A DNA stretch of 64,000 bases, from positions 15,138 through 79,137 of the forward strand of contig JAFGHP010000083.1 of the NCBI GenBank assembly GCA_016930055.1. The letters run 5' to 3'. Positions 1,096 to 45,431 of the stretch are shown piece after piece; position 1 is the first letter of the stretch; every line of letters starts with the position of its first letter. The stretch is from Candidatus Bathyarchaeota archaeon (GTDB lineage: Archaea; Thermoproteota; Bathyarchaeia; TCS64). The notes below the pieces were generated by a model. It did no database searches. It was not told the origin of the DNA and worked only from the letters and a program-made list of their open reading frames with translations. Made by a program: the position numbers and the translations under genes.

Positions 1096-1769
1096 TGATG
1101 TAACTCCATTAATTCATAAATTCTTCGAAGCCTCTCCAAAGGTAATTGACCAGGAGCTACTGCTTCATGTTGATTAGGTGAAGCATATGTCCATTCTCCT
1201 CCTACCAAGGGAGATATTATTCTAGACAATACTCCCGATGTAGACATCCCGAAAGCTATGTTTCCTGGATGATTTTTTAAAAATTCTAAATAAACGATGT
1301 TGTCATAATAATTATTTGCGTTACCAACAATTTTACAAATACTACAACCAGAGTTTTTTGCTCTAGTGTACATTTCTTCCATTTCATATATTGTTGGTGT
1401 TTTATTGAAGTCATGATATGAAATTATTAATTTTGAAGATGTGCTTTGAAGATCTGATGCAACATTAAGTATGTTTGGAGTTGATGCTTCTAAATCAACA
1501 TAAGAAAAACCCGAATTACAAGCATTTATTAAAAGATTAATTCTATCTTTTTCAGGTTTTTTCCATAATCCACCATCATTTTTGATTCGTGCAGTTGCTA
1601 TTAACGGGATTTTTGTTACTTCAACGATTTTATAGGGATTAATATCCTTTTTGCTGTAATCGAAACGTATTTCTATTAAATCTGGAGATAGAGGTTCTAG
1701 TCTTTTAATCGTTTTTATTATTTTTGATATATTTAATGCTTGTAGAGTAACACAAATCTTGGGATTCAT
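1092..1769 (-). CDS. aroD: 3-dehydroquinate dehydratase, type I
   Basis: The 225-aa ORF has type I DHQase length and TIM-barrel-like sequence. It lies between aroB and aroE with 4-nt overlaps. Confidence 0.85.
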   Translation of the reverse strand: MNPKICVTLQALNISKIIKTIKRLEPLSPDLIEIRFDYSKKDINPYKIVEVTKIPLIATARIKNDGGLWKKPEKDRINLLINACNSGFSYVDLEASTPNILNVASDLQSTSSKLIISYHDFNKTPTIYEMEEMYTRAKNSGCSICKIVGNANNYYDNIVYLEFLKNHPGNIAFGMSTSGVLSRIISPLVGGEWTYASPNQHEAVAPGQLPLERLRRIYELMELHQ

Positions 1770-2864: not shown

Positions 2865-3701
2865 TTACATCTGCTTTCCTATTGCTCTAGTTAGGGGATA
2901 TAACTCTTTCATTAAAGTCATGAATTCATTTGGATGAAGACTTTGATCTCCGTCACTTAGAGCTTTCTCTGGTTCAGGATGAACTTCGATTAATAAACCA
3001 TCTGCACCAGCTACAACTGCTGCTTTTGCCATGGGGTTTACTAAACTTCTTACGCCAGTACCATGGCTTGGATCAACAATTATAGGTAAGTGACTTAATT
3101 GTTTAATGACAGGCACTGCAGAAACATCTAGAGTGTTTCTAGTAATAGTTTCATAAGTTCGGATACCCCGTTCACAAAGCATTACTTGTTGATTACCTTC
3201 ATTAAGAATATATTCAGCGCATCCAAGCCACTCTTCGATTGTTGCAGACATTCCTCGTTTGAGTAATACAGGTTTATTTGCTTTACCAACTCTTTTAAGA
3301 AGATTATAATTCTGCATATTTCTGCTACCTATTTGAAGAATATCAGTATAATTTTCTACCAGTTCAACATCCTCAGGACTTAAAACTTCAGTGATTATGG
3401 GTAGATTAGTTTCTTTTCTGGCTTCAGATAGTATTATTAGTCCTTCTTCACCTAATCCTTGGAAACTATATGGTAAAGTACGTGGTTTGAAAGCACCTCC
3501 TCTAATTATGTGGGCTCCAGCTTCTTTTACAGCTCTCGCTGATTCAAGCATCTGTTCCATTGATTCAACAGAGCATGGTCCAGCCATAACAACAAGTTGA
3601 TCTCCCCCAATTTCGATATCTCTTACTTTAATTCGCATGGTTTTATGTTCGCCAGGACTAACAGCTAATTTAATTTTCTGAGATACATTTAACTTTGACA
3701 T
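2865..3701 (-). CDS. 3-deoxy-7-phosphoheptulonate (DAHP) synthase, KDO8PS-like class I-beta
   Basis: The 278-aa ORF reads ...[10 protein letters not shown]...[12 protein letters not shown]..., the DAHPS/KDSA fold signature. It is the first gene of the aro operon. Confidence 0.85.
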
Positions 3702-9136: not shown

Positions 9137-9399
9137 TTATCTTCAGCCTCTGCCAATGTTACTTTAACTACACCTTCCGTATCTTTGTTGAGTTTTACCC
9201 TAATCTTATGCGGTGGTGATTTTATCCCTCTTGCCCAAATAGCTTCGTTTACAGAAGGGTCTAAAACAACTTTTTCAGCCTTCATATGGCGTTTAACAAA
9301 TTCTTTCAAAACAGTAATGGCTCTCTCTGATCTACGATAACGTTGAGCATTCCAAGCTTCTTTGAGAGGAACTGTATAAATACGTTCTATTTCAGACAT
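9133..9399 (-). CDS. rpl31e: 50S ribosomal protein L31e
   Basis: 88 aa, with an L31e-like sequence (RIYTVPLKEAW...RA..A...LKEFV.RH). Confidence 0.85.
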   Translation of the reverse strand: MSEIERIYTVPLKEAWNAQRYRRSERAITVLKEFVKRHMKAEKVVLDPSVNEAIWARGIKSPPHKIRVKLNKDTEGVVKVTLAEAEDK

Positions 9400-25477: not shown

Positions 25478-25554
25478 TTTAAATTAAATTATGGAAAGCT
25501 ATATATGAGCGTTATGCATGACTAGGCTGCGTAAAAAGGAGAGACAAAATTAAC

Positions 25555-26136
25555 TTGTCAAAGGCTGTTAGAGACAAGTGGCGCCGGAAGGAGTGGTATG
25601 ATATTATCCTTCCACATTATTTCGGTGAGACTAAAGTCGGTGAAACCCCAGCGGAAGAAGGGGTTAATATAAATGGAAGAATATTTGAAACCACTCTAGC
25701 TCAAATCACCGGAGATTTTAGCCAAGAACACATTAAAATGTATTTCCAAGTAACAGATGTTGAAGAGCATAAAGCGAATACAATTTTTAGAGGACATGAA
25801 TATCTTCGAGATTATTTAAGGAGCCTAGTTAGAAGACGCAGCACTAAAATAGATGGCATATTCAGAGTAACAACACAAGACGGTTACAAAGTGAAAATCA
25901 TAGTTACCACAATGACTCAAACAAGAATACAGACAAGTCAGGAATATAAAATTAGACTGATAATGAAAGAAATCGTTGAAGAAAAAGCGAAAAATCTTAC
26001 ATTTGATCAAATAGCACATGAAATGGTTTTAGGAAAATTAGCTAGTGATGTATATAATTTAGCTAAAAATGTCACTAGTCTTCGTCACGTTGGAGTAAGA
26101 AAGAGTGAATTAATATCCTTGCCTATATCATCTTAA
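25555..26136 (+). CDS. rps3ae: 30S ribosomal protein S3Ae (S1e)
   Basis: 193 aa with the S3Ae signature (KEWYDI.LP..FG...VGET...). It has a TTG start preceded by AAAGGAGAG. Confidence 0.9.
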   Translation: MSKAVRDKWRRKEWYDIILPHYFGETKVGETPAEEGVNINGRIFETTLAQITGDFSQEHIKMYFQVTDVEEHKANTIFRGHEYLRDYLRSLVRRRSTKIDGIFRVTTQDGYKVKIIVTTMTQTRIQTSQEYKIRLIMKEIVEEKAKNLTFDQIAHEMVLGKLASDVYNLAKNVTSLRHVGVRKSELISLPISS

Positions 26137-35509: not shown

Positions 35510-35929
35510 TTAATTAATAATATAGCCATCTAAGGCTAAATGATTTTTTTGTCTAAGATAAATTACGGGTATACCTTCATTTCTTAGTCGTTGTCTTAAT
35601 TCGTTATCGGTTGTCGCAACGATATATGAATTTTCTTTGGCTAATCTTAGTAACTTTGAATCAACATCTTCATCATTATTACTGTTATCATCATCAATTA
35701 TTTTATATTTAGAAAGATTTGACAAAACAAAACTGATTTCTTTTTTAAAAGAAGGCTGACCTCCTTTTTTGAGACTATCCAATTCTTTTAAAACTGATTT
35801 TGTTATGGTTGGTTCATAAGCAATATCTAATAACATATCAAGTTGATCAAAAACATCTATACCAAATCTTATAGGCAATAATAAAAAATTTGTATCAAAA
35901 ATAATAATTAATGGGGCTTTGTGCATCAA
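35510..35929 (-). CDS. PIN-domain protein
   Basis: The 139-aa ORF has an N-terminal IIFDTNFLL PIN motif and conserved acidic residues. It occupies the position downstream of aIF2-gamma that is conserved in archaea. Confidence 0.65.
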   Translation of the reverse strand: MMHKAPLIIIFDTNFLLLPIRFGIDVFDQLDMLLDIAYEPTITKSVLKELDSLKKGGQPSFKKEISFVLSNLSKYKIIDDDNSNNDEDVDSKLLRLAKENSYIVATTDNELRQRLRNEGIPVIYLRQKNHLALDGYIIN

Positions 35930-35930
35930 T

Positions 35931-37169
35931 TCAGTTTCTCAATACCCCTGCTCCAATTAATCTCCATCTACCACCAATTCTACGACTTATTGCTACGTGA
36001 TCAGTTTCTTCTCCACAGATAGGAATAGATAATTTTGCCTCTATGTAGTCTTTCTTTACTAAAGTAATGTCCGCCATAGTCTTTGAGGTTCCTACATTTA
36101 GTAGAAGTTTTTCTCCTTTAGCAATTTTAGCTACTGCTTCCTGTTCTTTACTACCAATAACGCTACTAAAAAGTTTAATATCAAGATTTAGCTCTTCACG
36201 AACAGGTGGTAACATGCCAGGTATTCCAGCAATACTTCCAACTAGACCATCTGATTTGGTTAAAGATGGATCAAGAGTTGTCCCAACACCTACAAGACCC
36301 CCAGGCAAAGCCTCTGAAACAGAACTATCTCCTATATATAAACTGGTAATTTCTGTAGTTAATTCTCTCATTTTGACTTTATTTTTCTCTCTAGTGGGTA
36401 AACCGGGGCGAATTTCTATTTCATCGCCTACTTTGAAGCTGCCTTGATAAATTGAACCTCCAAGAACCCCTCCCATCAGATCTTCAATTAATGTTCCTGG
36501 ATTATTCACATCGAAACTTCGAATAATATGCATTCGTGCAGGTTTATTTGGGTCTCTTTTAGGGGTTAGTAAATATTCTTGAATTGCTTGTAAAAGGAGA
36601 TCGATATTTAATTTATGTTGAGCGGAAACAGGGATTATTGGAGCATTTTCCGCAATACTTCCTTTTAAAAATTTTAATATATCAGTATAATTTCTAATCG
36701 CTTCGTCACGATTAACTAAATCGATTTTATTTTGGACCACAATAATGTTTTTTAAACCAATTATATCTATAGCTGCTAAGTGTTCGCGGGTTTGTGGTTG
36801 AGGACATTTTTCGTTTGCTGCTATAACTAATATGGCTCCATCCATAACTGCAGCTCCACTTAACATAGTGGCCATTAAAATCTCGTGACCTGGCGCATCA
36901 ACAAAACTGATTGCTCTCTTAAACTCAGTATCCGAACCGCATTTTGTACACTCTGGTGTTACAGAATAACAATCAGGTTCATCACATTCTTTACATTTAT
37001 AAATAGCAAAATCAGCATAACCTAATTTAATCGTAATGCCTCTTTTTAATTCTTCACTATGTTTTGAAGCCCATTCTCCTGTAAGAGCTTGAACTAGTGT
37101 TGTTTTACCATGGTCGACATGACCTATTGTACCAATATTAATTTCTGGCTGCTTTGGTAGTTTAGGGAT
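35931..37169 (-). CDS. eif2g: translation initiation factor 2 subunit gamma (aIF2-gamma)
   Basis: The ORF track starts at an internal Met (36875). The in-frame upstream part encodes PKQPEINIGTIGHVDHGKTTLVQALTGEWASKHSEELKRGITIKLGYADFAIYKCKECDEPDCY...APGHE (P-loop and Zn knuckle). No ATG/GTG/TTG lies between the stop at 37200-37202 and the P-loop. GGGAGG (37179-37184) is followed 9 nt later by ATC (37167-37169). Confidence 0.85.
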   Translation of the reverse strand: MPKLPKQPEINIGTIGHVDHGKTTLVQALTGEWASKHSEELKRGITIKLGYADFAIYKCKECDEPDCYSVTPECTKCGSDTEFKRAISFVDAPGHEILMATMLSGAAVMDGAILVIAANEKCPQPQTREHLAAIDIIGLKNIIVVQNKIDLVNRDEAIRNYTDILKFLKGSIAENAPIIPVSAQHKLNIDLLLQAIQEYLLTPKRDPNKPARMHIIRSFDVNNPGTLIEDLMGGVLGGSIYQGSFKVGDEIEIRPGLPTREKNKVKMRELTTEITSLYIGDSSVSEALPGGLVGVGTTLDPSLTKSDGLVGSIAGIPGMLPPVREELNLDIKLFSSVIGSKEQEAVAKIAKGEKLLLNVGTSKTMADITLVKKDYIEAKLSIPICGEETDHVAISRRIGGRWRLIGAGVLRN

Positions 37170-37362
37170 ATTTCTTCGCCTCCCTGAATCTAAATGCGAT
37201 TACTATATTACTTACACTTAAATACGTTTAGCATAACTCGATGTATATTTCTTGTTTAAAAAATACTTTTTTTAATAAAAAAAAGTATTAAAAATATGAA
37301 AATAGTGATTATTTTTATAATGATAATCGATGCATCTAAACGTAGAGTGGGAAGAGCAATAA

Positions 37363-38529
37363 TTGGATAATTATTTAATAATTTGGATAAGACTACTAAA
37401 TAGTTTAATAACCATTGCTTTTTTCCCATATTTATATTTTATTTATAAAAAAACAAAAAAACATTTTTATCTACTTTGGGGAGGAGGATTTTTACTTTAT
37501 GGTATAGGCATTATAATTAGATCAATTTTACCTACAATTGGTTTAGAAGAATCTTTAAATGCACAAATCTTTTCCTTTATTTTCACTTTATCGGGATTCA
37601 TTTTTATTATAGTTGGAATCGGGGATCTTACAAATAGGATAAAATTAATGTTATGCACTTCGATGAGCATACCATTATTTTTATCTTATTTATTTTTTAC
37701 ATCTAAACCATATGAAATTGGTAGAGCAATTTCATTAATTCCCTTCATATTCATTAGTATAAGTTTACTGTTAATTAGGAAAAACTATACTTCAAGTCTA
37801 GATTTGTTAACAATAGGATGGATAATATTAACAATTGACAATATTGGATTAGCTTTAGAATTGATTTCTGAGATATTCGTAGAAGTTTTTGCGGTCTTAG
37901 GTAAGATTATAATTTTTTTAGGTATGACTTACCCACGTTTTTCACTGCTTGTGGATGATTTTAAAAGATTCTTAATATCAGGTTTACCAAATAATTATAC
38001 CGAAAATAATTTAAAACATGTTATTTTAGTGAATTCTACTAATGCAAATCGTGAAGTAGAATTAAAATGGATTAAAGAACAAGTTGAAGAAAATAAAATT
38101 CATGGTATTCGTACAATTCTTATTTCATATCATGATTTAATTTCAATTAATGATATAAAAAATATTAGAATAGATCAAAAGGATCTTTATATTGTTCGAA
38201 TGTTAACTGGAGGAAGAATTCTGCAAGAAATATTTACTAAAGATTCTATGACTATTAACGATGATCTTAACGAACTTGATATTTTATTAAATGAAATTAT
38301 TGAATTCTCCAAAGAAAAAAAAATAAAATGTTCAGTTATTCTTTATACTCTTTCTTCACTTATTCATATTCATGGGTGGAAAAGAGTATATTCTTTCATG
38401 GTTTCAAAGTTTCAATATATTAAAGATAGTGAGATTCATGTGATTGCTTTTTATTACCCTCAAACACATGAAAATATTGCAGATATAGTAAAATTTGAAA
38501 AAATTGTAGATGATATTATTGATTTGTAA
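37363..38529 (+). CDS. membrane protein with cytoplasmic C-terminal domain (possible KaiC-associated sensor/anchor)
   Basis: The 388-aa ORF has about 6 predicted TM helices in its first 190 aa, followed by a 200-aa soluble domain. It lies upstream of a GH3-like ligase and a KaiC-like ATPase. Confidence 0.45.
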   Translation: MDNYLIIWIRLLNSLITIAFFPYLYFIYKKTKKHFYLLWGGGFLLYGIGIIIRSILPTIGLEESLNAQIFSFIFTLSGFIFIIVGIGDLTNRIKLMLCTSMSIPLFLSYLFFTSKPYEIGRAISLIPFIFISISLLLIRKNYTSSLDLLTIGWIILTIDNIGLALELISEIFVEVFAVLGKIIIFLGMTYPRFSLLVDDFKRFLISGLPNNYTENNLKHVILVNSTNANREVELKWIKEQVEENKIHGIRTILISYHDLISINDIKNIRIDQKDLYIVRMLTGGRILQEIFTKDSMTINDDLNELDILLNEIIEFSKEKKIKCSVILYTLSSLIHIHGWKRVYSFMVSKFQYIKDSEIHVIAFYYPQTHENIADIVKFEKIVDDIIDL

Positions 38530-38554
38530 ACATTCGAGGTGTGAGAGATAATCG

Positions 38555-39979
38555 ATGTCAACATTAATTAAAAAAATTTTTGTTAAAACTTTAGAAAAAT
38601 ATGCTTTAAGATTTACTTCAAAAAAGAAAATTAGTGAAGAAATTACTAAAAATATTTCAGAAAAATTAAAAAAAGCTTCAAATTCAACACTAGGGAAAGA
38701 ATTAGGGATTTCTTATAATTCAAATATAGATAAATTACCATTAACAAATTATGGTTTTTATCAAAAATATTTCGAATTTCCGAATTCTAATAGTTTATTA
38801 TATCCAATAAATGATTATGTAAAAGTATCTACTAGTGGAACTATGGGAAAACCTAAAAGTTTCCTCGTTCCAAAACCTGCTTTAACAGATAATATGCAAA
38901 AAACAGGGTTTTCTAACCTTTTCCTTTATACTCATGATGGTGAAAAAGTGACATTTGAGTATGGAGATGTAGTTTATACGAATACTCCTGGAGGAAATCA
39001 CCTTGCAGCATACAATTCAGAGATTGGAGCTAAACAAAATAAGGGTCTAGTTAAATTATGTCCAGACATTAATCTTCTTTTTAAAGATAAAGTTGAGTTC
39101 TTTATTGAAAATTATAATAAAATTGATGTAGCTTACATGCCAGTAACCACATTGATTGATGATGTTTATCCAAAAATTGGGCATCCATTTAAATTGAAAG
39201 GGTTCATAACACAAGACAGTTCTGCATGTTTTCTGAAAGAAGAAATAAAGAAAATTATTGGAAGTTACCCAAAAGTAACTTATGGTTCAACTGAAACATT
39301 AGCTTCAACTATGCCTTCAATAGAAAATCCTGGTTCTTTCTTTTTTGATTGGAGGGTATTATTTATAGAGTTAATTCCCGAAAAAGACCAGATAAAAACT
39401 GATTTCCAAACTCTAAAGGAACCCAAAGAAACATTATCTTTTTTAGATGCAGAAGTAAATAAAAAATATCAAGTTGTAGCAACTCTCTATAAAACAGATT
39501 TAACAAGATATGTAATGCCAGATATAATTGAATGCACCTGTATAGGTGACGATGTTTTAGGTTTAGAAACTCCAGTCTTTAAATATTATTCTAGATCGGA
39601 TAAAATCATTAATTTACATAATTTTACTAGGATTGGAGAACCTGAAATGTTAGAAGTCTTACTAGCATCAGGGATTAAATTCGTGGATTTTGTCGTATCT
39701 AGAGAAGTTGAAGGTTCTAGAGAGTATATGATATTATATATTGAAACGGATTCTAAAATAGATGAAACAGATCTTTATAGGGCTATTGATGAAGAGCTTA
39801 CGACTTTTGATAAAGATTGGAGAGATCTAAAGAATTACTTTAATTATTATCCTTTAAAAATCAGATTTTTACCAAAGGGAAGTTTCAATAGATATTTATC
39901 TAATAAAAAAGGTATGCCTTCTATTGACCGTATTGGTATGAAAGAAGAAAATTTAAAACAATTATTAAAACAGGATTAA
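38555..39979 (+). CDS. GH3/ANL-superfamily adenylate-forming enzyme (putative)
   Basis: The 474-aa ORF has a VSTSGTMGKPKSF motif (ANL motif A3-like) and a YGSTE motif (A5-like), plus GH3-like length. Confidence 0.5.
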   Translation: MSTLIKKIFVKTLEKYALRFTSKKKISEEITKNISEKLKKASNSTLGKELGISYNSNIDKLPLTNYGFYQKYFEFPNSNSLLYPINDYVKVSTSGTMGKPKSFLVPKPALTDNMQKTGFSNLFLYTHDGEKVTFEYGDVVYTNTPGGNHLAAYNSEIGAKQNKGLVKLCPDINLLFKDKVEFFIENYNKIDVAYMPVTTLIDDVYPKIGHPFKLKGFITQDSSACFLKEEIKKIIGSYPKVTYGSTETLASTMPSIENPGSFFFDWRVLFIELIPEKDQIKTDFQTLKEPKETLSFLDAEVNKKYQVVATLYKTDLTRYVMPDIIECTCIGDDVLGLETPVFKYYSRSDKIINLHNFTRIGEPEMLEVLLASGIKFVDFVVSREVEGSREYMILYIETDSKIDETDLYRAIDEELTTFDKDWRDLKNYFNYYPLKIRFLPKGSFNRYLSNKKGMPSIDRIGMKEENLKQLLKQD

Positions 39980-40692
39980 ACTAAGACTGGTTCTTTATTA
40001 AAAACTTCGAAACCACGATAAGTAATTGAATATCTTCTAGGTTGTTCGTCATATTTTATTCCGCGCATTTTATCTACTCTTATTGTTTTTATTAAATTAT
40101 ATTCTCTTAGATCTTTATTCAATAAGATTACTCCATCAGCTAGAAATTGTTCCATATAGAAATCTCCTTCCTGTGGACTTGTTTCTGATGTTACTATAAC
40201 ATTACATCTTATCTTTCTTAATTCTTCAAACAATTCACTAATTAAGAATCGTTTTCGTCCAGAACGAGACTCATGAATCACGAGACTTGTTAAAGGGTCT
40301 ATTACTACATTTTTTGCTTTAGTTATCTTAATTGTATCTAGCAATTTTGTTATTGATAAATTAATTAGCTCATCAGATTCTTTGTCTCTATTTTTATTTG
40401 AACCAATTTCCGGTCGGGTAAATAAATCAAGTGTTATAAGTAGACCCTTCATCTCCCAACCAGTTAGATCCCATCCAAAGGAAGCGGTGTTTTTTTTCAT
40501 ACTTTCAATTGGCTCCTCAAGGCTAGCATAGACGCATATTTCTCCTCTATGAAGCGCTTTGATCAAGTATTGTATAGAAAATACTGTTTTACCTGTTCCA
40601 GGTCCACCACATAAAAGGGTGATTTTACTTTCTGGAAATCCTCCCCCAAGCATTTCATCTAATCCTAATATCCCAGTTGGAATGAAGTTCAT
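39976..40692 (-). CDS. KaiC-like RecA-superfamily ATPase (single domain)
   Basis: The 238-aa ORF has GILGLDEMLGGGFPE, a Walker A GGPGTGKT and a Walker B hydrophobic-D (NVVIDPL), the same arrangement as archaeal KaiC-like ATPases. Confidence 0.8.
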   Translation of the reverse strand: MNFIPTGILGLDEMLGGGFPESKITLLCGGPGTGKTVFSIQYLIKALHRGEICVYASLEEPIESMKKNTASFGWDLTGWEMKGLLITLDLFTRPEIGSNKNRDKESDELINLSITKLLDTIKITKAKNVVIDPLTSLVIHESRSGRKRFLISELFEELRKIRCNVIVTSETSPQEGDFYMEQFLADGVILLNKDLREYNLIKTIRVDKMRGIKYDEQPRRYSITYRGFEVFNKEPVLV

Positions 40693-40865
40693 TTAATCAC
40701 CTTAATTTTAACGGAATTATCTTAGGAGAATAATAACTAATACAAATATATTTCTAAAATATATAAAGCCTTTATGCTATTAGTAAAAGTTAAGTTAATT
40801 GAAAATATGATTATAATTGCGAAAGGGATGAGGTTCTATTAAGAACCAAAGTAATAGGTGTCGCT

Positions 40866-41468
40866 TTGAATAAGATCAAACATATTAAATATAAACCAAT
40901 ACCTGTGAGAGATACTCTAATTGAAATAAAAGATGTTTCTGAGTTAATGTTAGATCTTGCATATTCTGCAGCACTCTTTAATAATGTACAATTAGCAGAA
41001 GAAGTTATTCAGTTAGAAAAAAAAATTGATGATTTACAATACCAGTTAAATATGAATTTAATGTTAATAACGCATAATCCGAAAGATGCTGAAGCATTAG
41101 CGGGAGTACAAAGAGTTGGAAGTTTAGCAAACACAATATCTGACGCTGCTGGAGATATTGCTAAAATTGTTTTAAAAGGATTAAATGTTCATCCAATAGC
41201 TCAAAAAGCATTTGAATTAACTGAAGAAAAATTAGATTTAATGTTTGTTTCAGAAAACTCGATAATTATTGGTCATACAGTAGACGAATTACATTTGGCT
41301 AGAAAAATAGGTGCAGATATAATTGCAATTAGAAGAGGTCAACATTGGTTAATTAACCCTGGAAAAGAGATGATTATGCCTGAGGATATGATAATAGCTA
41401 GAGGAACATTTTCGGGACTGGAAGTTTTAAAGAAAGCATCAACGGGAGAGATAGATATTATTGAGTGA
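40866..41468 (+). CDS. PhoU-like / TrkA-C (RCK_C) domain regulatory protein, paralog 1
   Basis: The 200-aa ORF has an N-terminal helical PhoU-like region and a C-terminal TrkA_C-like barrel (..IIAIRRGQHWLINPGKEMIMPEDMIIARG). Confidence 0.55.
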   Translation: MNKIKHIKYKPIPVRDTLIEIKDVSELMLDLAYSAALFNNVQLAEEVIQLEKKIDDLQYQLNMNLMLITHNPKDAEALAGVQRVGSLANTISDAAGDIAKIVLKGLNVHPIAQKAFELTEEKLDLMFVSENSIIIGHTVDELHLARKIGADIIAIRRGQHWLINPGKEMIMPEDMIIARGTFSGLEVLKKASTGEIDIIE

Positions 41469-42054
41469 TGACGTTAATCGTATAGAAAAAGCAACCCAAA
41501 TTCTCGTAGAATTAAAAGATACGTCTGAATTAATGATGGATTTAGCCTATTCTTCAATTCTGTTAAATAATTCGTACTTAGCCGAAGAAGTTCAAATACT
41601 TATGGAAAAAATGAGCCAACTTCATTTCGATTTTGATTATATAATTTTGTCATGTAAAATAGAAAAAGATGATGTTGGTGGTTTAATAGGTCTACTTAGA
41701 ATTGGAACAGCTTCAGAAAAAATTGCAGATGCTGCTTCAGAAATAGCACAAATTGTTTTAAGAGGAATTGAACCCCATCCAGTTTTATCTATGGTTATAC
41801 AAGAAGCCGAAGAAACAGTGGAGAGAGTTACTGTTCCAGAAGGATCTCCAATAGTTAATAAGACATTAAAAGAAAGTCAAATTCCTGAAGAAACAGGTAT
41901 GTGGGTTTTAGCTATCCGCCGTGGGGATAGATGGATTCGACCTAAAGCAAATACAGTAATTGAAGCGAGGGACATCATTGTTGCAGCAGGTTATGCTGAT
42001 GGAGAAACCGATTTCAAACAATTAATTTGTGGGTGTGAAAACCCCTTAGACTAA
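41461..42054 (+). CDS. PhoU-like / TrkA-C (RCK_C) domain regulatory protein, paralog 2
   Basis: The 197-aa ORF is collinear with the preceding ORF (IELKDTSELMMDLAYSSILLNN..., VLAIRRGDRWIRPKANTVIEARDIIVAAG) and overlaps it by 8 nt. Confidence 0.55.
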   Translation: MSDDVNRIEKATQILVELKDTSELMMDLAYSSILLNNSYLAEEVQILMEKMSQLHFDFDYIILSCKIEKDDVGGLIGLLRIGTASEKIADAASEIAQIVLRGIEPHPVLSMVIQEAEETVERVTVPEGSPIVNKTLKESQIPEETGMWVLAIRRGDRWIRPKANTVIEARDIIVAAGYADGETDFKQLICGCENPLD

Positions 42055-42068
42055 TTTTAAAAAATTTT

Positions 42069-42461
42069 TTAATCAGTACTAACTGATTCGAGTTTGCTAT
42101 CCGTTTTTTTACGACTTTTAGGTTGTTCAGTGATCATTAGATTTAAAAATTTAATATCGGTACTAACCATATTTCCTCGAATTACTTTTCTCTTACGTTC
42201 ACCTTTTGTTTTTGGGTGGTATCCAACTCCTTCACTTAGGATCGGGGATATTTTTACACTCCCATGTATATCTGTTCTCATTGGTATACCATCTTTATCA
42301 TTTCCTCCAGTGATTTTTAATTTATAACCTGGCATATTAGCTATATTTCCATCAATTATTTCTCCAATTCGCTTACCAATAAGGGGGCTATACCTAGAAT
42401 CTTCTAAATCGATCTTTTGACTTTTTCCTGTTGAGGGATCCGATACTATGAGTGTTGGCAT
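42069..42461 (-). CDS. rps6e: 30S ribosomal protein S6e
   Basis: 130-aa ORF with the S6e signature (KLKITGGNDKDGIPM...). Confidence 0.9.
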   Translation of the reverse strand: MPTLIVSDPSTGKSQKIDLEDSRYSPLIGKRIGEIIDGNIANMPGYKLKITGGNDKDGIPMRTDIHGSVKISPILSEGVGYHPKTKGERKRKVIRGNMVSTDIKFLNLMITEQPKSRKKTDSKLESVSTD

Positions 42462-42471
42462 TTTTATTCAC

Positions 42472-44259
42472 CTATATTGCCCATAAGGGGTCTTTTTTCC
42501 TTTTTATTTGAATTAGTTCCTCGAGGGTTTTATTAGCATTCTCCGTCAAGCGTGTTACGAATTTTTGTCGTAACATCCTGACATCCTTCTCTGGAACGTC
42601 TACGTACAGAACATCTTTCTCTTTTATATGTCTACCTACGATTGGGGTAGGCATTGACACTGCTACTTCTTTTCCTTCATCGGCTTTGGATATAGGTTGT
42701 CCTTGATCTTGCATTTGAGTCAATTTTCCTAACCCTTCATTTTCTCTATTTATCATTGGTACATTTGAGTATAGTACACCTGCTTCAACTTTTGCACCAA
42801 AAATAGCAGGTTTTGCACGTCGAAAAATAAAACCTTCCATTACTTGTATTTTAGCGGGTTGAATTAAACTATTAAATTCTTTTCGTGCTTTAGCTTCACG
42901 TTCTTCCTCAATCCATCGGACATAATCATCAATGATATTATAAATTATTACTCCTTTGAACACTTTGATTCTTTGTGATTCAGCTTCTGATTCAGCATCT
43001 GGTAATGTTTTTACATTGAATGCAAGAATTGCACCATATAATGGATCTTCATATTTTACACTTAAAGCCTCTAAAACATCACGCCGACTAACATCACCAA
43101 TATCAGCTAATCTTATAGGAATATCTCTTGCACGTATGCTTTCAACAAGTGCTTCTAAACTTCCAAGCGTATCAGTTTTTACTATTACACCGGTTCGATC
43201 CGCTTTAATTTTAACACTATCAACTTCTTGATTTACATCAGCTATTGCTTTTTCAAGAGTAATATCATCACCAACTGCAATAAGAGGAGTACCAGGTAAA
43301 GCGTCTTCAATAGAAGGAGCAGCAATTTTAATACCAGAAGCAGCGTGTACTTCTTGAATTATATTAAATTTCTTTTTTGGGTCTCTAATTTCATCAAGTG
43401 GCTGAGGCATAAGTAAAGCTCTAATTTTTGTTACAATAGGTCCATTTTTCCCACCAATGACAATTGTGTCTTCTTGATGTAATATCCCGTCATAAATTAT
43501 TGCATTAAGCGTAATTCCTAAACCTACTTCTTCACGAACTTCAAGGACAGTGCCTAAAGCAGATCCATCAGTAACTCTTAATTTATCTTGCATGTATTGT
43601 TGAGTTAAACCAATTAAAACCGCTAATAAGTCACCTACACCTTCACCAGTTTTTGCACTTACAGGAACCATTGCTATTGATCGAGTAAAATCACGAACCC
43701 GATCATAACGTTCACTATAAAAACCTTCACGACTCAGCGTCCCCATCATCTGATAGAGACGATTATCAAGATCTTCTTTAACAAGAGGAAGTTGTTCATT
43801 ATAACTCTGTAGAAATGCAGTGTTTTCTTTAGAACGCCAGCCTTCAATTCTATCTATTTTATTCGCAGCAATGATAAAAGGTGTTTTTCTACTTTTCAAA
43901 ATATTTAAAGATTCATATGTTTGGTTTTCAAATCCGTGCATAACATCTACAACTAAGATGGCGATATCAGCAACACTACCTCCTCGTCTACGAAGATTGG
44001 CAAATGCTTCGTGACCCGGGGTATCAACAACTAAAAGTCCTGGAATCTGAACATTTACTTTAAAATTTTTAACTAATTGTTGTGTTATAGCAACTAAAGT
44101 ATCGAAAGGGAAGTAACTTGCTCCAATTTGCTGTGTCATTCCTCCTGCTTCACGTAACTGAACCGCAGTACCACGAATTTTATCTAACAAACTAGTTTTT
44201 CCTGTATCAACGTGTCCTAGCATACAAACAATTGGCTGACGAATTACCATACACGACAC
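42472..44259 (-). CDS. infB: translation initiation factor aIF5B (IF-2 homolog)
   Basis: The 595-aa ORF has a G domain (GHVDTGKTSLLD, DTPGH, NKID) followed by beta-barrel domains. Confidence 0.9.
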   Translation of the reverse strand: MSCMVIRQPIVCMLGHVDTGKTSLLDKIRGTAVQLREAGGMTQQIGASYFPFDTLVAITQQLVKNFKVNVQIPGLLVVDTPGHEAFANLRRRGGSVADIAILVVDVMHGFENQTYESLNILKSRKTPFIIAANKIDRIEGWRSKENTAFLQSYNEQLPLVKEDLDNRLYQMMGTLSREGFYSERYDRVRDFTRSIAMVPVSAKTGEGVGDLLAVLIGLTQQYMQDKLRVTDGSALGTVLEVREEVGLGITLNAIIYDGILHQEDTIVIGGKNGPIVTKIRALLMPQPLDEIRDPKKKFNIIQEVHAASGIKIAAPSIEDALPGTPLIAVGDDITLEKAIADVNQEVDSVKIKADRTGVIVKTDTLGSLEALVESIRARDIPIRLADIGDVSRRDVLEALSVKYEDPLYGAILAFNVKTLPDAESEAESQRIKVFKGVIIYNIIDDYVRWIEEEREAKARKEFNSLIQPAKIQVMEGFIFRRAKPAIFGAKVEAGVLYSNVPMINRENEGLGKLTQMQDQGQPISKADEGKEVAVSMPTPIVGRHIKEKDVLYVDVPEKDVRMLRQKFVTRLTENANKTLEELIQIKRKKDPLWAI

Positions 44260-44355
44260 CTGTCCTTTGCTTAGAAACTCTTCCTATTAACTTATTCTTA
44301 TTTTAAAAAGAACTATGTTTTTAGAAATAAATTTAATATAATAGATAATTTTTAT

Positions 44356-45259: not shown

Positions 45260-45333
45260 ATGGGCCGGGCCGGACTTGAACCGGCGACCTCCGCGGTGTG
45301 AACGCGGCGTTCCACCAAGCTAGACTACCGGCC
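45260..45333 (-). tRNA. tRNA-Val (anticodon CAC)
   Basis: The GC-rich 74-nt minus-strand sequence is GGGCCGGTAGTCTAGCTTGGTGGAACGCCGCGTTCACACCGCGGAGGTCGCCGGTTCAAGTCCGGCCCGGCCCA. It has a 7-bp acceptor stem, a 5-bp anticodon stem with loop UUCACAC (CAC anticodon) and a T-arm GCCGG/TTCAAGT/CCGGC. CCA is not encoded and there is no intron. Confidence 0.75.
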
Positions 45334-45431
45334 CACAACACATGTAGCTAAAGAAACAAAATAAATTCCTTTTCATAAAAATTAAATTGTAAAGTCAATT
45401 TTCATTAATTAGAACAAAAGATTGTTTAAAA

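Follow-up and report, generated by a model that had tools for sequence, protein, structure and literature searches.

In many bacteria, infC begins with an ATT or ATA codon, and AUU-dependent autocontrol of the gene has been described; in Deinococcus the ATC start of dnaA and the CTG start of rpsL were proven by N-terminal proteomics (PMC2830850). A review of archaeal initiation gives AUG, GUG and UUG as the only start codons (PMC7531240), and the archaeal factor aIF1 destabilises complexes on non-AUG codons (PMC6237735). Here we analysed a 64,000-nucleotide stretch of contig JAFGHP010000083.1 from a Candidatus Bathyarchaeota archaeon (hereafter the window; GC content of 32%), in which the gene for the gamma subunit of archaeal translation initiation factor 2 (aIF2-gamma) has no ATG, GTG or TTG where its coding sequence should begin. 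On comparative evidence, this is very probably an intact and functional gene that is translated from the near-cognate codon AUC at 37169-37167 (positions throughout are those of the window, unless they are given for a numbered locus).

The gene lies on the minus strand in a single open frame of 422 codons (37202-35931), bounded by a TAA (37202-37200) and a TGA (35933-35931). The codons after the TAA read S H L D S G R R R N I P K L P K Q P E I N I G T I and lead directly into the G1 motif, or P-loop, GHVDHGKTT (37124-37098). Within this stretch is a Shine-Dalgarno (SD) motif, GGGAGGCGA (37184-37176); its GGGAGG (37184-37179) is followed by 9 nucleotides (nt), CGAAGAAAT, and then by ATC (37169-37167), which is the first AUH codon (AUA, AUC or AUU) 3' of the motif. 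The coding sequence that starts there (37169-35931, minus strand) has 412 codons plus the TGA. The first ATG, GTG or TTG in the frame (the canonical starts) is an ATG at 36875-36873, codon 108 counted from stop to stop and Met-99 counted from the ATC. An earlier sequence-only reading of this DNA had placed the TAA, the GGGAGG with its 9-nt spacing and the ATC at these same positions, without a canonical codon between the TAA and the P-loop, and had proposed that the essential P-loop, the switch regions and the zinc knuckle are encoded in frame 5' of the first ATG (37150-36876). All of its coordinates are correct, and the four cysteines of the knuckle (Cys59, Cys62, Cys74 and Cys77, at approximately 36995-36939) do lie upstream of that ATG. 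Canonical start codons make up 3.2% of in-frame codons in the long open reading frames (ORFs) of the window, which gives a chance of about 4% for a run of 98 codons that lacks them. Such a run is unusual and by itself not decisive; we place the start at the ATC because homology to full-length aIF2-gamma extends up to it.

The 412-residue product scores 648 bits against the NCBIfam equivalog NF003077 (cut-off of 315), with residues 6-411 on profile positions 6-411 of 412, and 635 bits against TIGR03680 (cut-off of 514.5). It matches Pyrococcus abyssi aIF2-gamma (PDB 1KK0; E = 2.5e-162) from residue 5 to residue 411, on chain residues 6-409. The three-domain architecture follows from the Pfam entries of the identical protein P0001 (PF00009, PF03144 and PF09173), and both the GHVDHGKT motif and the four-cysteine zinc knuckle of domain I are invariant in a 30-sequence alignment (A1). 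Full-length scores above curated equivalog cut-offs, the GTPase and zinc motifs, the three domains and end-to-end similarity to a solved structure together identify the product as aIF2-gamma. The N-terminal length predicted in the sequence-only reading, by likeness to Pyrococcus, was right, as the 412 amino acids are in register with both NF003077 and 1KK0. P0001 itself is an NCBI record of 412 residues from a 91-kb contig, 'translation initiation factor IF-2 subunit gamma [Candidatus Bathyarchaeota archaeon]', that begins MPKLPKQPEINIG at the ATC of the window; the NCBI pipeline therefore already puts the start there.

A mechanical list of ORFs begins aIF2-gamma at the ATG at 36875, as would be expected of a pseudogene or of a truncated product without the P-loop, switch 1 and the zinc knuckle. 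We consider the chance of either to be negligible. Between the window and its nearest relative (locus L081; 89% protein identity), the ratio of non-synonymous to synonymous substitution rates (dN/dS) is 0.038 over codons 2-98 and 0.049 over the rest of the gene, so that purifying selection acts alike on the codons 5' of the first ATG and on the remainder. The full-length product scores well above the equivalog cut-off (648 bits against 315), the ATG at 36875 has no preceding SD motif and encodes an internal methionine rather than a start, and neither relaxed selection nor a defect private to this sequence was found, the arrangement being shared by independent assemblies. A gamma subunit made as two polypeptides, which the sequence-only reading had named as a possible refutation, is ruled out as well, as the region 5' of the first ATG belongs to one continuous ORF under equally strong purifying selection. 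Pseudogene, truncated product and split subunit are all rejected because of the conservation across loci and the dN/dS over codons 2-98.

To place the ATC in a wider context, we retrieved the DNA of relatives by exact-protein look-up and by matching a degenerate DNA pattern for QPExNxGTxGHVDHGK against metagenomes. Clustering of the encoded proteins defined a clade at ≥69% identity to the window protein, for which the DNA of 19 distinct loci (GC content of 32-63%) was available. A scan of species-representative genomes with protein alignment returned mostly bacterial EF-Tu, through GHVDHGKT, and 16 archaeal loci that served as outgroups. The codon aligned with the ATC of the window is ATC in 12 of the 19 loci, ATA in 3, ATT in 2, ATG in 1 (L118) and TTG in 1 (L158, with a shift of one codon). 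In each of the 19 loci, a G-rich SD motif lies 5' of the codon, together with a conserved TATA-like box 41-47 nt upstream. Nine loci (the window, L081, L082, L083, L086, L206, L210, L211 and L117) have no canonical start between the in-frame stop and the P-loop; in L082 the stop is only two codons 5' of the start (TAA GTC ATA), and in L210 a TAA lies six codons 5' of it, with none of the intervening codons canonical. In a 14-sequence alignment (A2), the start codon has an invariant A and T and a variable third base: the three isoleucine codons interchange freely, and a third-position G is almost never seen. ATG is one mutation away from each of them, yet among the 18 loci with an ATN codon it occupies the position only once, whereas C, T and A all occur as the third base. 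As in infC-type AUH starts, aIF2-gamma thus combines the lack of a canonical start before the N-terminal domain, a functional SD spacing and an AUH codon at the orthologous position.

The sequence-only reading had left two explanations side by side, genuine initiation at AUA or AUC and systematic errors at ATG. The exact sequence of the window is known from one contig and one protein record only, and a true ATG miscalled as ATC, and likewise in the membrane pyrophosphatase gene hppA (below), would leave the same picture. We nevertheless exclude such sequencing or assembly errors, to which we assign almost no probability, because independent assemblies from NCBI, JGI, ENA and Logan, of differing samples and GC content, share the ATC, ATT or ATA codon as well as the geometry of SD motif and promoter. 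Miscalls would not produce three isoleucine codons that track the codon bias of each genome, and the ATA of hppA is common to the window and L081. The other explanation, genuine AUH initiation, is the one that the 17 loci support.

Protein records from the clade are consistent with a start that gene callers handle poorly. The 120 protein clusters that match best all have ≥69% identity to the window protein. In 45 of them the called gene starts within the P-loop or beyond it (for example, VDHGKTT...), and 25 carry long, unconserved N-terminal extensions to a distant canonical codon, 21 of which have isoleucine at the aligned position. A further 20 clusters start two codons upstream (M/V/L-x-I...), with the isoleucine kept in every one; 11 start at the isoleucine position, mostly in NCBI records; and 18 have a canonical start of the MRLPA or MKLPK type. 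NCBI annotates ATC, ATT and ATA starts in the window's own protein, L081, L082 and the complete genome CP070784.1. The canonical codons at position -2 adjoin the SD motif, at a spacing of 0-3 nt. The -2 codon is TTG in L207 and L212 and TTT in the near-identical L210 and L211, and the ATC and the SD motif are the same in all four. The constant element is the ATH codon and not the neighbouring canonical codon, which comes and goes between near-identical genomes. In a neighbour-joining tree, states without a canonical start occur throughout the crown of the clade; canonical starts occupy the most basal branch and are scattered elsewhere. The AUH start of aIF2-gamma therefore appears, from these comparisons, to be an old and maintained trait of a large clade of Bathyarchaeia.

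The layout upstream of the codon is conserved as well. A promoter-like element, GCTAAACGTATTTAAGTG (37232-37215, minus strand), combines a TATA part, which ends 47 nt 5' of the ATC, with a candidate transcription factor B recognition element. Its block ATAAA[CT]GTAT[AT]TAAG is present in all 14 aligned relatives, where it ends 41-47 nt upstream of the start codon; archaeal promoter knowledge suggests that it functions as a promoter. The G-rich SD motifs of the relatives are GGGAGGCGA, AGGGGCGA, GGGGGA or AAGAGGCGA, with a G-run that ends 7-9 nt before the start codon, and the G-run plus the CGA is kept. Because the TATA-like box and the SD motif lie at fixed distances from the start, the transcript is most likely a short-leadered, SD-dependent mRNA from its own promoter, with the transcription start placed by extrapolation from the box. 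A leaderless archaeal mRNA would have its TATA box centred about 26-27 nt 5' of the start codon; we reject such a transcript here, as the only element that is conserved across relatives ends 41-47 nt upstream, with the SD motif in between. We also rejected an upstream ATG joined to the gene by a frameshift: the nearest ATG in the window lies 5' of the TATA-like box, and in L082 and L210 the frame is closed by a stop shortly before the start codon. Folding of the region from -26 to +45 in 14 relatives gave no common RNA structure, with z-scores near zero (-1.9 to +1.1), so a conserved regulatory hairpin at the start is not supported. At the gathering score, Rfam returned only a tRNA-Val (45261-45334) in the window and no leader or riboswitch family near aIF2-gamma.

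Spacing also bears on which AUH codon is used. An SD match of ≥5 nt precedes the canonical start of 25 genes in the window. Their spacing, counted from the final G of GGAGG, has its peak at 8 nt (9 genes) and 9 nt (4 genes) and spans 4-12 nt. The ATC of aIF2-gamma, 9 nt from the GGAGG core, falls in this 8-9-nt mode. Two ATT codons of the E-I-N-I-G segment (37145-37143 and 37139-37137) are likewise AUH and in frame, and initiation at one of them would give a slightly shorter protein. We regard this as improbable: they lie 33-39 nt from the GGAGG core, well outside the range of the window; the intervening P-K-L-P-K-Q-P is kept as amino acids through synonymous changes (CTA/CTT/CTC/TTA and CCA/CCG/CCC); and the family profile and solved structures align from residue 5-6.

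A second gene in the window, hppA (minus strand), had been claimed to be another essential gene with an SD motif and an AUH codon, and this is real. In its initiation region (35442-35423), AGGAGGT (35439-35433) is followed by ATA (35425-35423), 8 nt after the GGAGG core and thus at the modal SD spacing of the window, and the first canonical start in the ORF (35452-33368) is only at codon 64. The coding sequence from the ATA (35425-33368) has 685 codons, and its product scores 829 bits against NF001960 (cut-off of 546), with residues 6-682 on profile positions 4-671 of 673. The NCBI record of this contig (P0241; 687 amino acids) starts at an ATT two codons further up (35431-35429), 2 nt from the GGAGG core, which is probably too far upstream; the ATA is the better candidate, and both are AUH. 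In L081 (4700-4760), an ATA stands 7 nt after TAGGAGGT, and a TAG four codons upstream of it closes the frame. L082 (4700-4760) has TTG at the codon aligned with the ATA, and homologues that are about 79% identical have methionine or leucine at the start position; two homologues that are 87-88% identical are truncated calls of 673 residues. As L081 shares the ATA and L082 and the homologues at about 79% have TTG or ATG, the AUA start of hppA appears to be recent and confined to close relatives of the window. With hppA starting at AUA, AUH initiation evidently works in this lineage.

These are the only 2 of approximately 65 substantial ORFs in the window that have a long conserved stretch 5' of the first canonical start. 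Other ORFs with 11-27 codons before a canonical start (S3Ae, L1, 3-dehydroquinase, Ham1, PhoU/TrkA-C, a dsDNA-binding protein and a methyltransferase) were rejected as candidates, because their Pfam domain begins at or after that start. The AUH start is gene-specific in the window and not general in the organism. The earlier suggestion of AUA/AUC initiation 'in this organism' thus holds in that the initiation appears genuine, and needs narrowing in its scope, as it concerns single genes, one apparently old and clade-wide and the other recent. In S3Ae (25522-25560, plus strand), AGGAG is followed after 7 nt by ATT, with a TTG two codons on at which the Pfam domain begins; the start could be either. 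Weak canonical starts are frequent: TTG begins 10 of the 25 SD-led genes. Among them are aEF1A (57574, plus strand), in which AGGAG is followed after 7 nt by TTG, and probably aIF2-alpha (52043, minus strand), in which a TTG after GGTGA gives a product in register with the NCBIfam profile. Such heavy use of TTG on highly expressed translation genes is unusual.

Several points weigh against an AUC start that is used for methionine and kept by selection. The use of the codon and the incorporation of methionine are both deduced from sequence comparison. SD pairing was judged against the general archaeal consensus of the 16S rRNA 3' end, and the loci are related by descent, so that their counts are not independent events. 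In addition, because isoleucine is kept in all 20 of the clusters that have a canonical codon two triplets upstream, its conservation could in part concern the residue itself and not the start codon. The last point would fit a protein that needs the isoleucine itself and begins with it, in which case the AUC would be read by a tRNA of the elongator type or by an initiator tRNA whose anticodon is altered. We consider this very improbable: initiation with isoleucine has no known precedent in archaea, and one relative has ATG, and one TTG, at the start position. Where AUU of infC and ATC of Deinococcus dnaA have been studied, the initiator tRNA is used and methionine is incorporated (PMC2830850). 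None of the tRNA genes in the window bears on whether the AUC is decoded as isoleucine or methionine.

The high share of TTG starts (around 40% of SD-led genes) raises a different doubt, as the lineage may simply tolerate weak starts. An AUH codon would then have no regulatory meaning and would be an effectively neutral weak start, in a lineage whose initiation machinery discriminates poorly among start codons. This is a possibility of some weight, although we judge it the less likely outcome. It would accord with the recent switch of hppA from ATG or TTG to ATA among the closest relatives, and with the canonical codons near the aIF2-gamma start that appear and disappear between close relatives. 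Against it, ATG is nearly absent from a position that a single mutation would convert, and the AUH state has lasted while the proteins of the clade diverged to about 70% identity and its GC content came to span 32-63%. Canonical triplets in any frame between -22 and +27 of the start are also depleted (9 observed versus 22 expected from shuffles), a difference that is only suggestive because the sequences are related.

For the AUC start of aIF2-gamma, we propose the following sequence of events. The promoter with its TATA-like box, about 47 nt upstream, would yield an mRNA leader of roughly 20-25 nt. GGGAGG(CGA) would pair with the 16S rRNA 3' end and set the AUC in the P site at a spacing that is normal for this genome. 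Initiator Met-tRNA would pair with the AUC despite a third-position mismatch, as for the AUU of infC and the ATC of Deinococcus dnaA. The resulting 412-residue protein would begin Met-Pro-Lys-Leu-Pro-Lys-Gln-Pro-Glu, with the predicted N-terminal peptide (M)PKLPKQPEINIGTIGHVDHGK. Initiation at the AUC would probably be inefficient and sensitive to fidelity factors, and its likeliest role would be that of a start kept weak on purpose behind a good SD motif, which would limit gamma synthesis and tie its output to the rejection of non-AUG codons by aIF1 and aIF2. As aIF1 destabilises non-AUG complexes, gamma synthesis from the AUC would fall as stringency rises. A regulatory role like that of infC is plausible from conservation and analogy, with indirect hints in the avoidance of ATG at the start position and in the depletion of canonical triplets around it.

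Near-cognate starts on aIF2-gamma may extend beyond this clade. In a BA2-like clade of Bathyarchaeia (about 62% identical), the 3' end of the ORF for ribosomal protein S6e extends across the start of aIF2-gamma. A conserved leucine codon stands 5-6 nt after GGAGG[TC]GA; of 22 loci (a subset of L091-L198; for example, L095, near 9201-9248), 21 have CTG there and one has TTG, and NCBI annotates a CTG start in L208 (1501) and in the complete genome CP070679.1 (L209, 1501). An in-frame stop lies three codons upstream in 2 of the 22 loci (L092 and L191), and also in L135, as read by eye; GTG or ATG stands three codons upstream of the CTG in 14 of the 22. A CUG start, perhaps coupled to translation of S6e, is possible in this clade. 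In a Poseidoniales locus (L010, about 2560-2640), the frame reads TGA GAA CTG GCA ..., with GGGGGGA upstream and no ATG, GTG or TTG before the P-loop, and in L011 (about 2930-3010) a TTG adjoins GGGGTGA, with a CTG 5 nt beyond the motif (GGGGTGAT). Both loci may represent additional lineages in which this gene has a near-cognate start. That the near-cognate starts of aIF2-gamma are a selected archaeal counterpart of infC, with CUG in the role in BA2-like Bathyarchaeia and possibly in Poseidoniales, is a tentative idea that we think rather doubtful. If it were true, the device would have arisen more than once in archaea.

The surroundings of the gene are partly conserved. In L081 (1-4657), the gene order is aIF5B, S6e, a KaiC-like ATPase, aIF2-gamma, a PIN-domain protein and hppA. 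The window keeps these genes (35510-44283), with about 3 kb extra (37363-39979) between the ATPase and aIF2-gamma and two PhoU/TrkA-C-like genes (40803-42054) beyond the set of L081. The start of the PIN-domain gene overlaps the aIF2-gamma stop (TGA ATTG ATG). Elsewhere in the window, ARAGORN calls a 92-nt tRNA-Tyr (1623-1714, plus strand) inside the 3-dehydroquinase ORF of the opposite strand; the call is probably spurious, the alternative being a tRNA that contains an intron.

Translation table 11 allows ATH starts. Because both the table and NCBI annotation already permit them, the annotation of an individual ATC start is not new; the interest lies in the clade-wide conservation of AUH on a core initiation factor. 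In our literature searches, the coverage of which was incomplete so that absence is no proof, no paper turned up that reports aIF2-gamma starting at AUH or CUG. Over deep divergence, a widespread clade of uncultured archaea would have kept an AUH start on an essential gene for an initiation factor, which suggests that initiation in archaea, with its eukaryote-like machinery, can make routine use of codons that are near-cognate at the third position, provided that an SD motif positions them. There are practical consequences, as gene callers limited to canonical starts mis-annotate aIF2-gamma, with the truncations (45 of 120 clusters) and spurious extensions (25 of 120) described above, and so distort pangenome and completeness analyses. 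The aIF2-gamma leader with AUC or AUG would be a concrete substrate for asking whether the stringency of aIF1 and aIF2 feeds back on synthesis, as that of IF3 does.

Set against known systems, the aIF2-gamma start resembles ordinary archaeal starts in its leadered, SD-guided layout, with a spacing like that of other window genes, and differs in that AUH falls outside the AUG, GUG and UUG set. It shares with Deinococcus dnaA and rpsL the setting of essential, conserved genes that lack a canonical start, a start that is conserved in relatives and the way in which it resolves heterogeneous annotated N-termini; those cases are bacterial and experimentally shown, whereas ours is built on comparative sequence evidence. 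In eukaryotes, synthesis of eIF1 (through an AUG in poor context) and of eIF5 (through an upstream ORF) is likewise tied to the rejection of suboptimal starts, and a/eIF1 is discussed in this light (PMC6237735). Those systems work through scanning and Kozak context, and not through a non-AUG codon positioned by an SD motif. To our knowledge, eIF2-gamma itself is not autoregulated through start-site stringency. Bacterial infC, the closest analogue, is alike in being a core initiation-factor gene with a conserved, third-position near-cognate AUH codon behind an SD motif, kept over long evolutionary distances. It belongs to another domain and encodes another factor: IF3 is a fidelity factor whose closest archaeal counterpart is aIF1, whereas aIF2-gamma carries the initiator tRNA. 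Feedback is known for infC, and for aIF2-gamma it is not obvious how aIF2 itself would close a simple negative loop.

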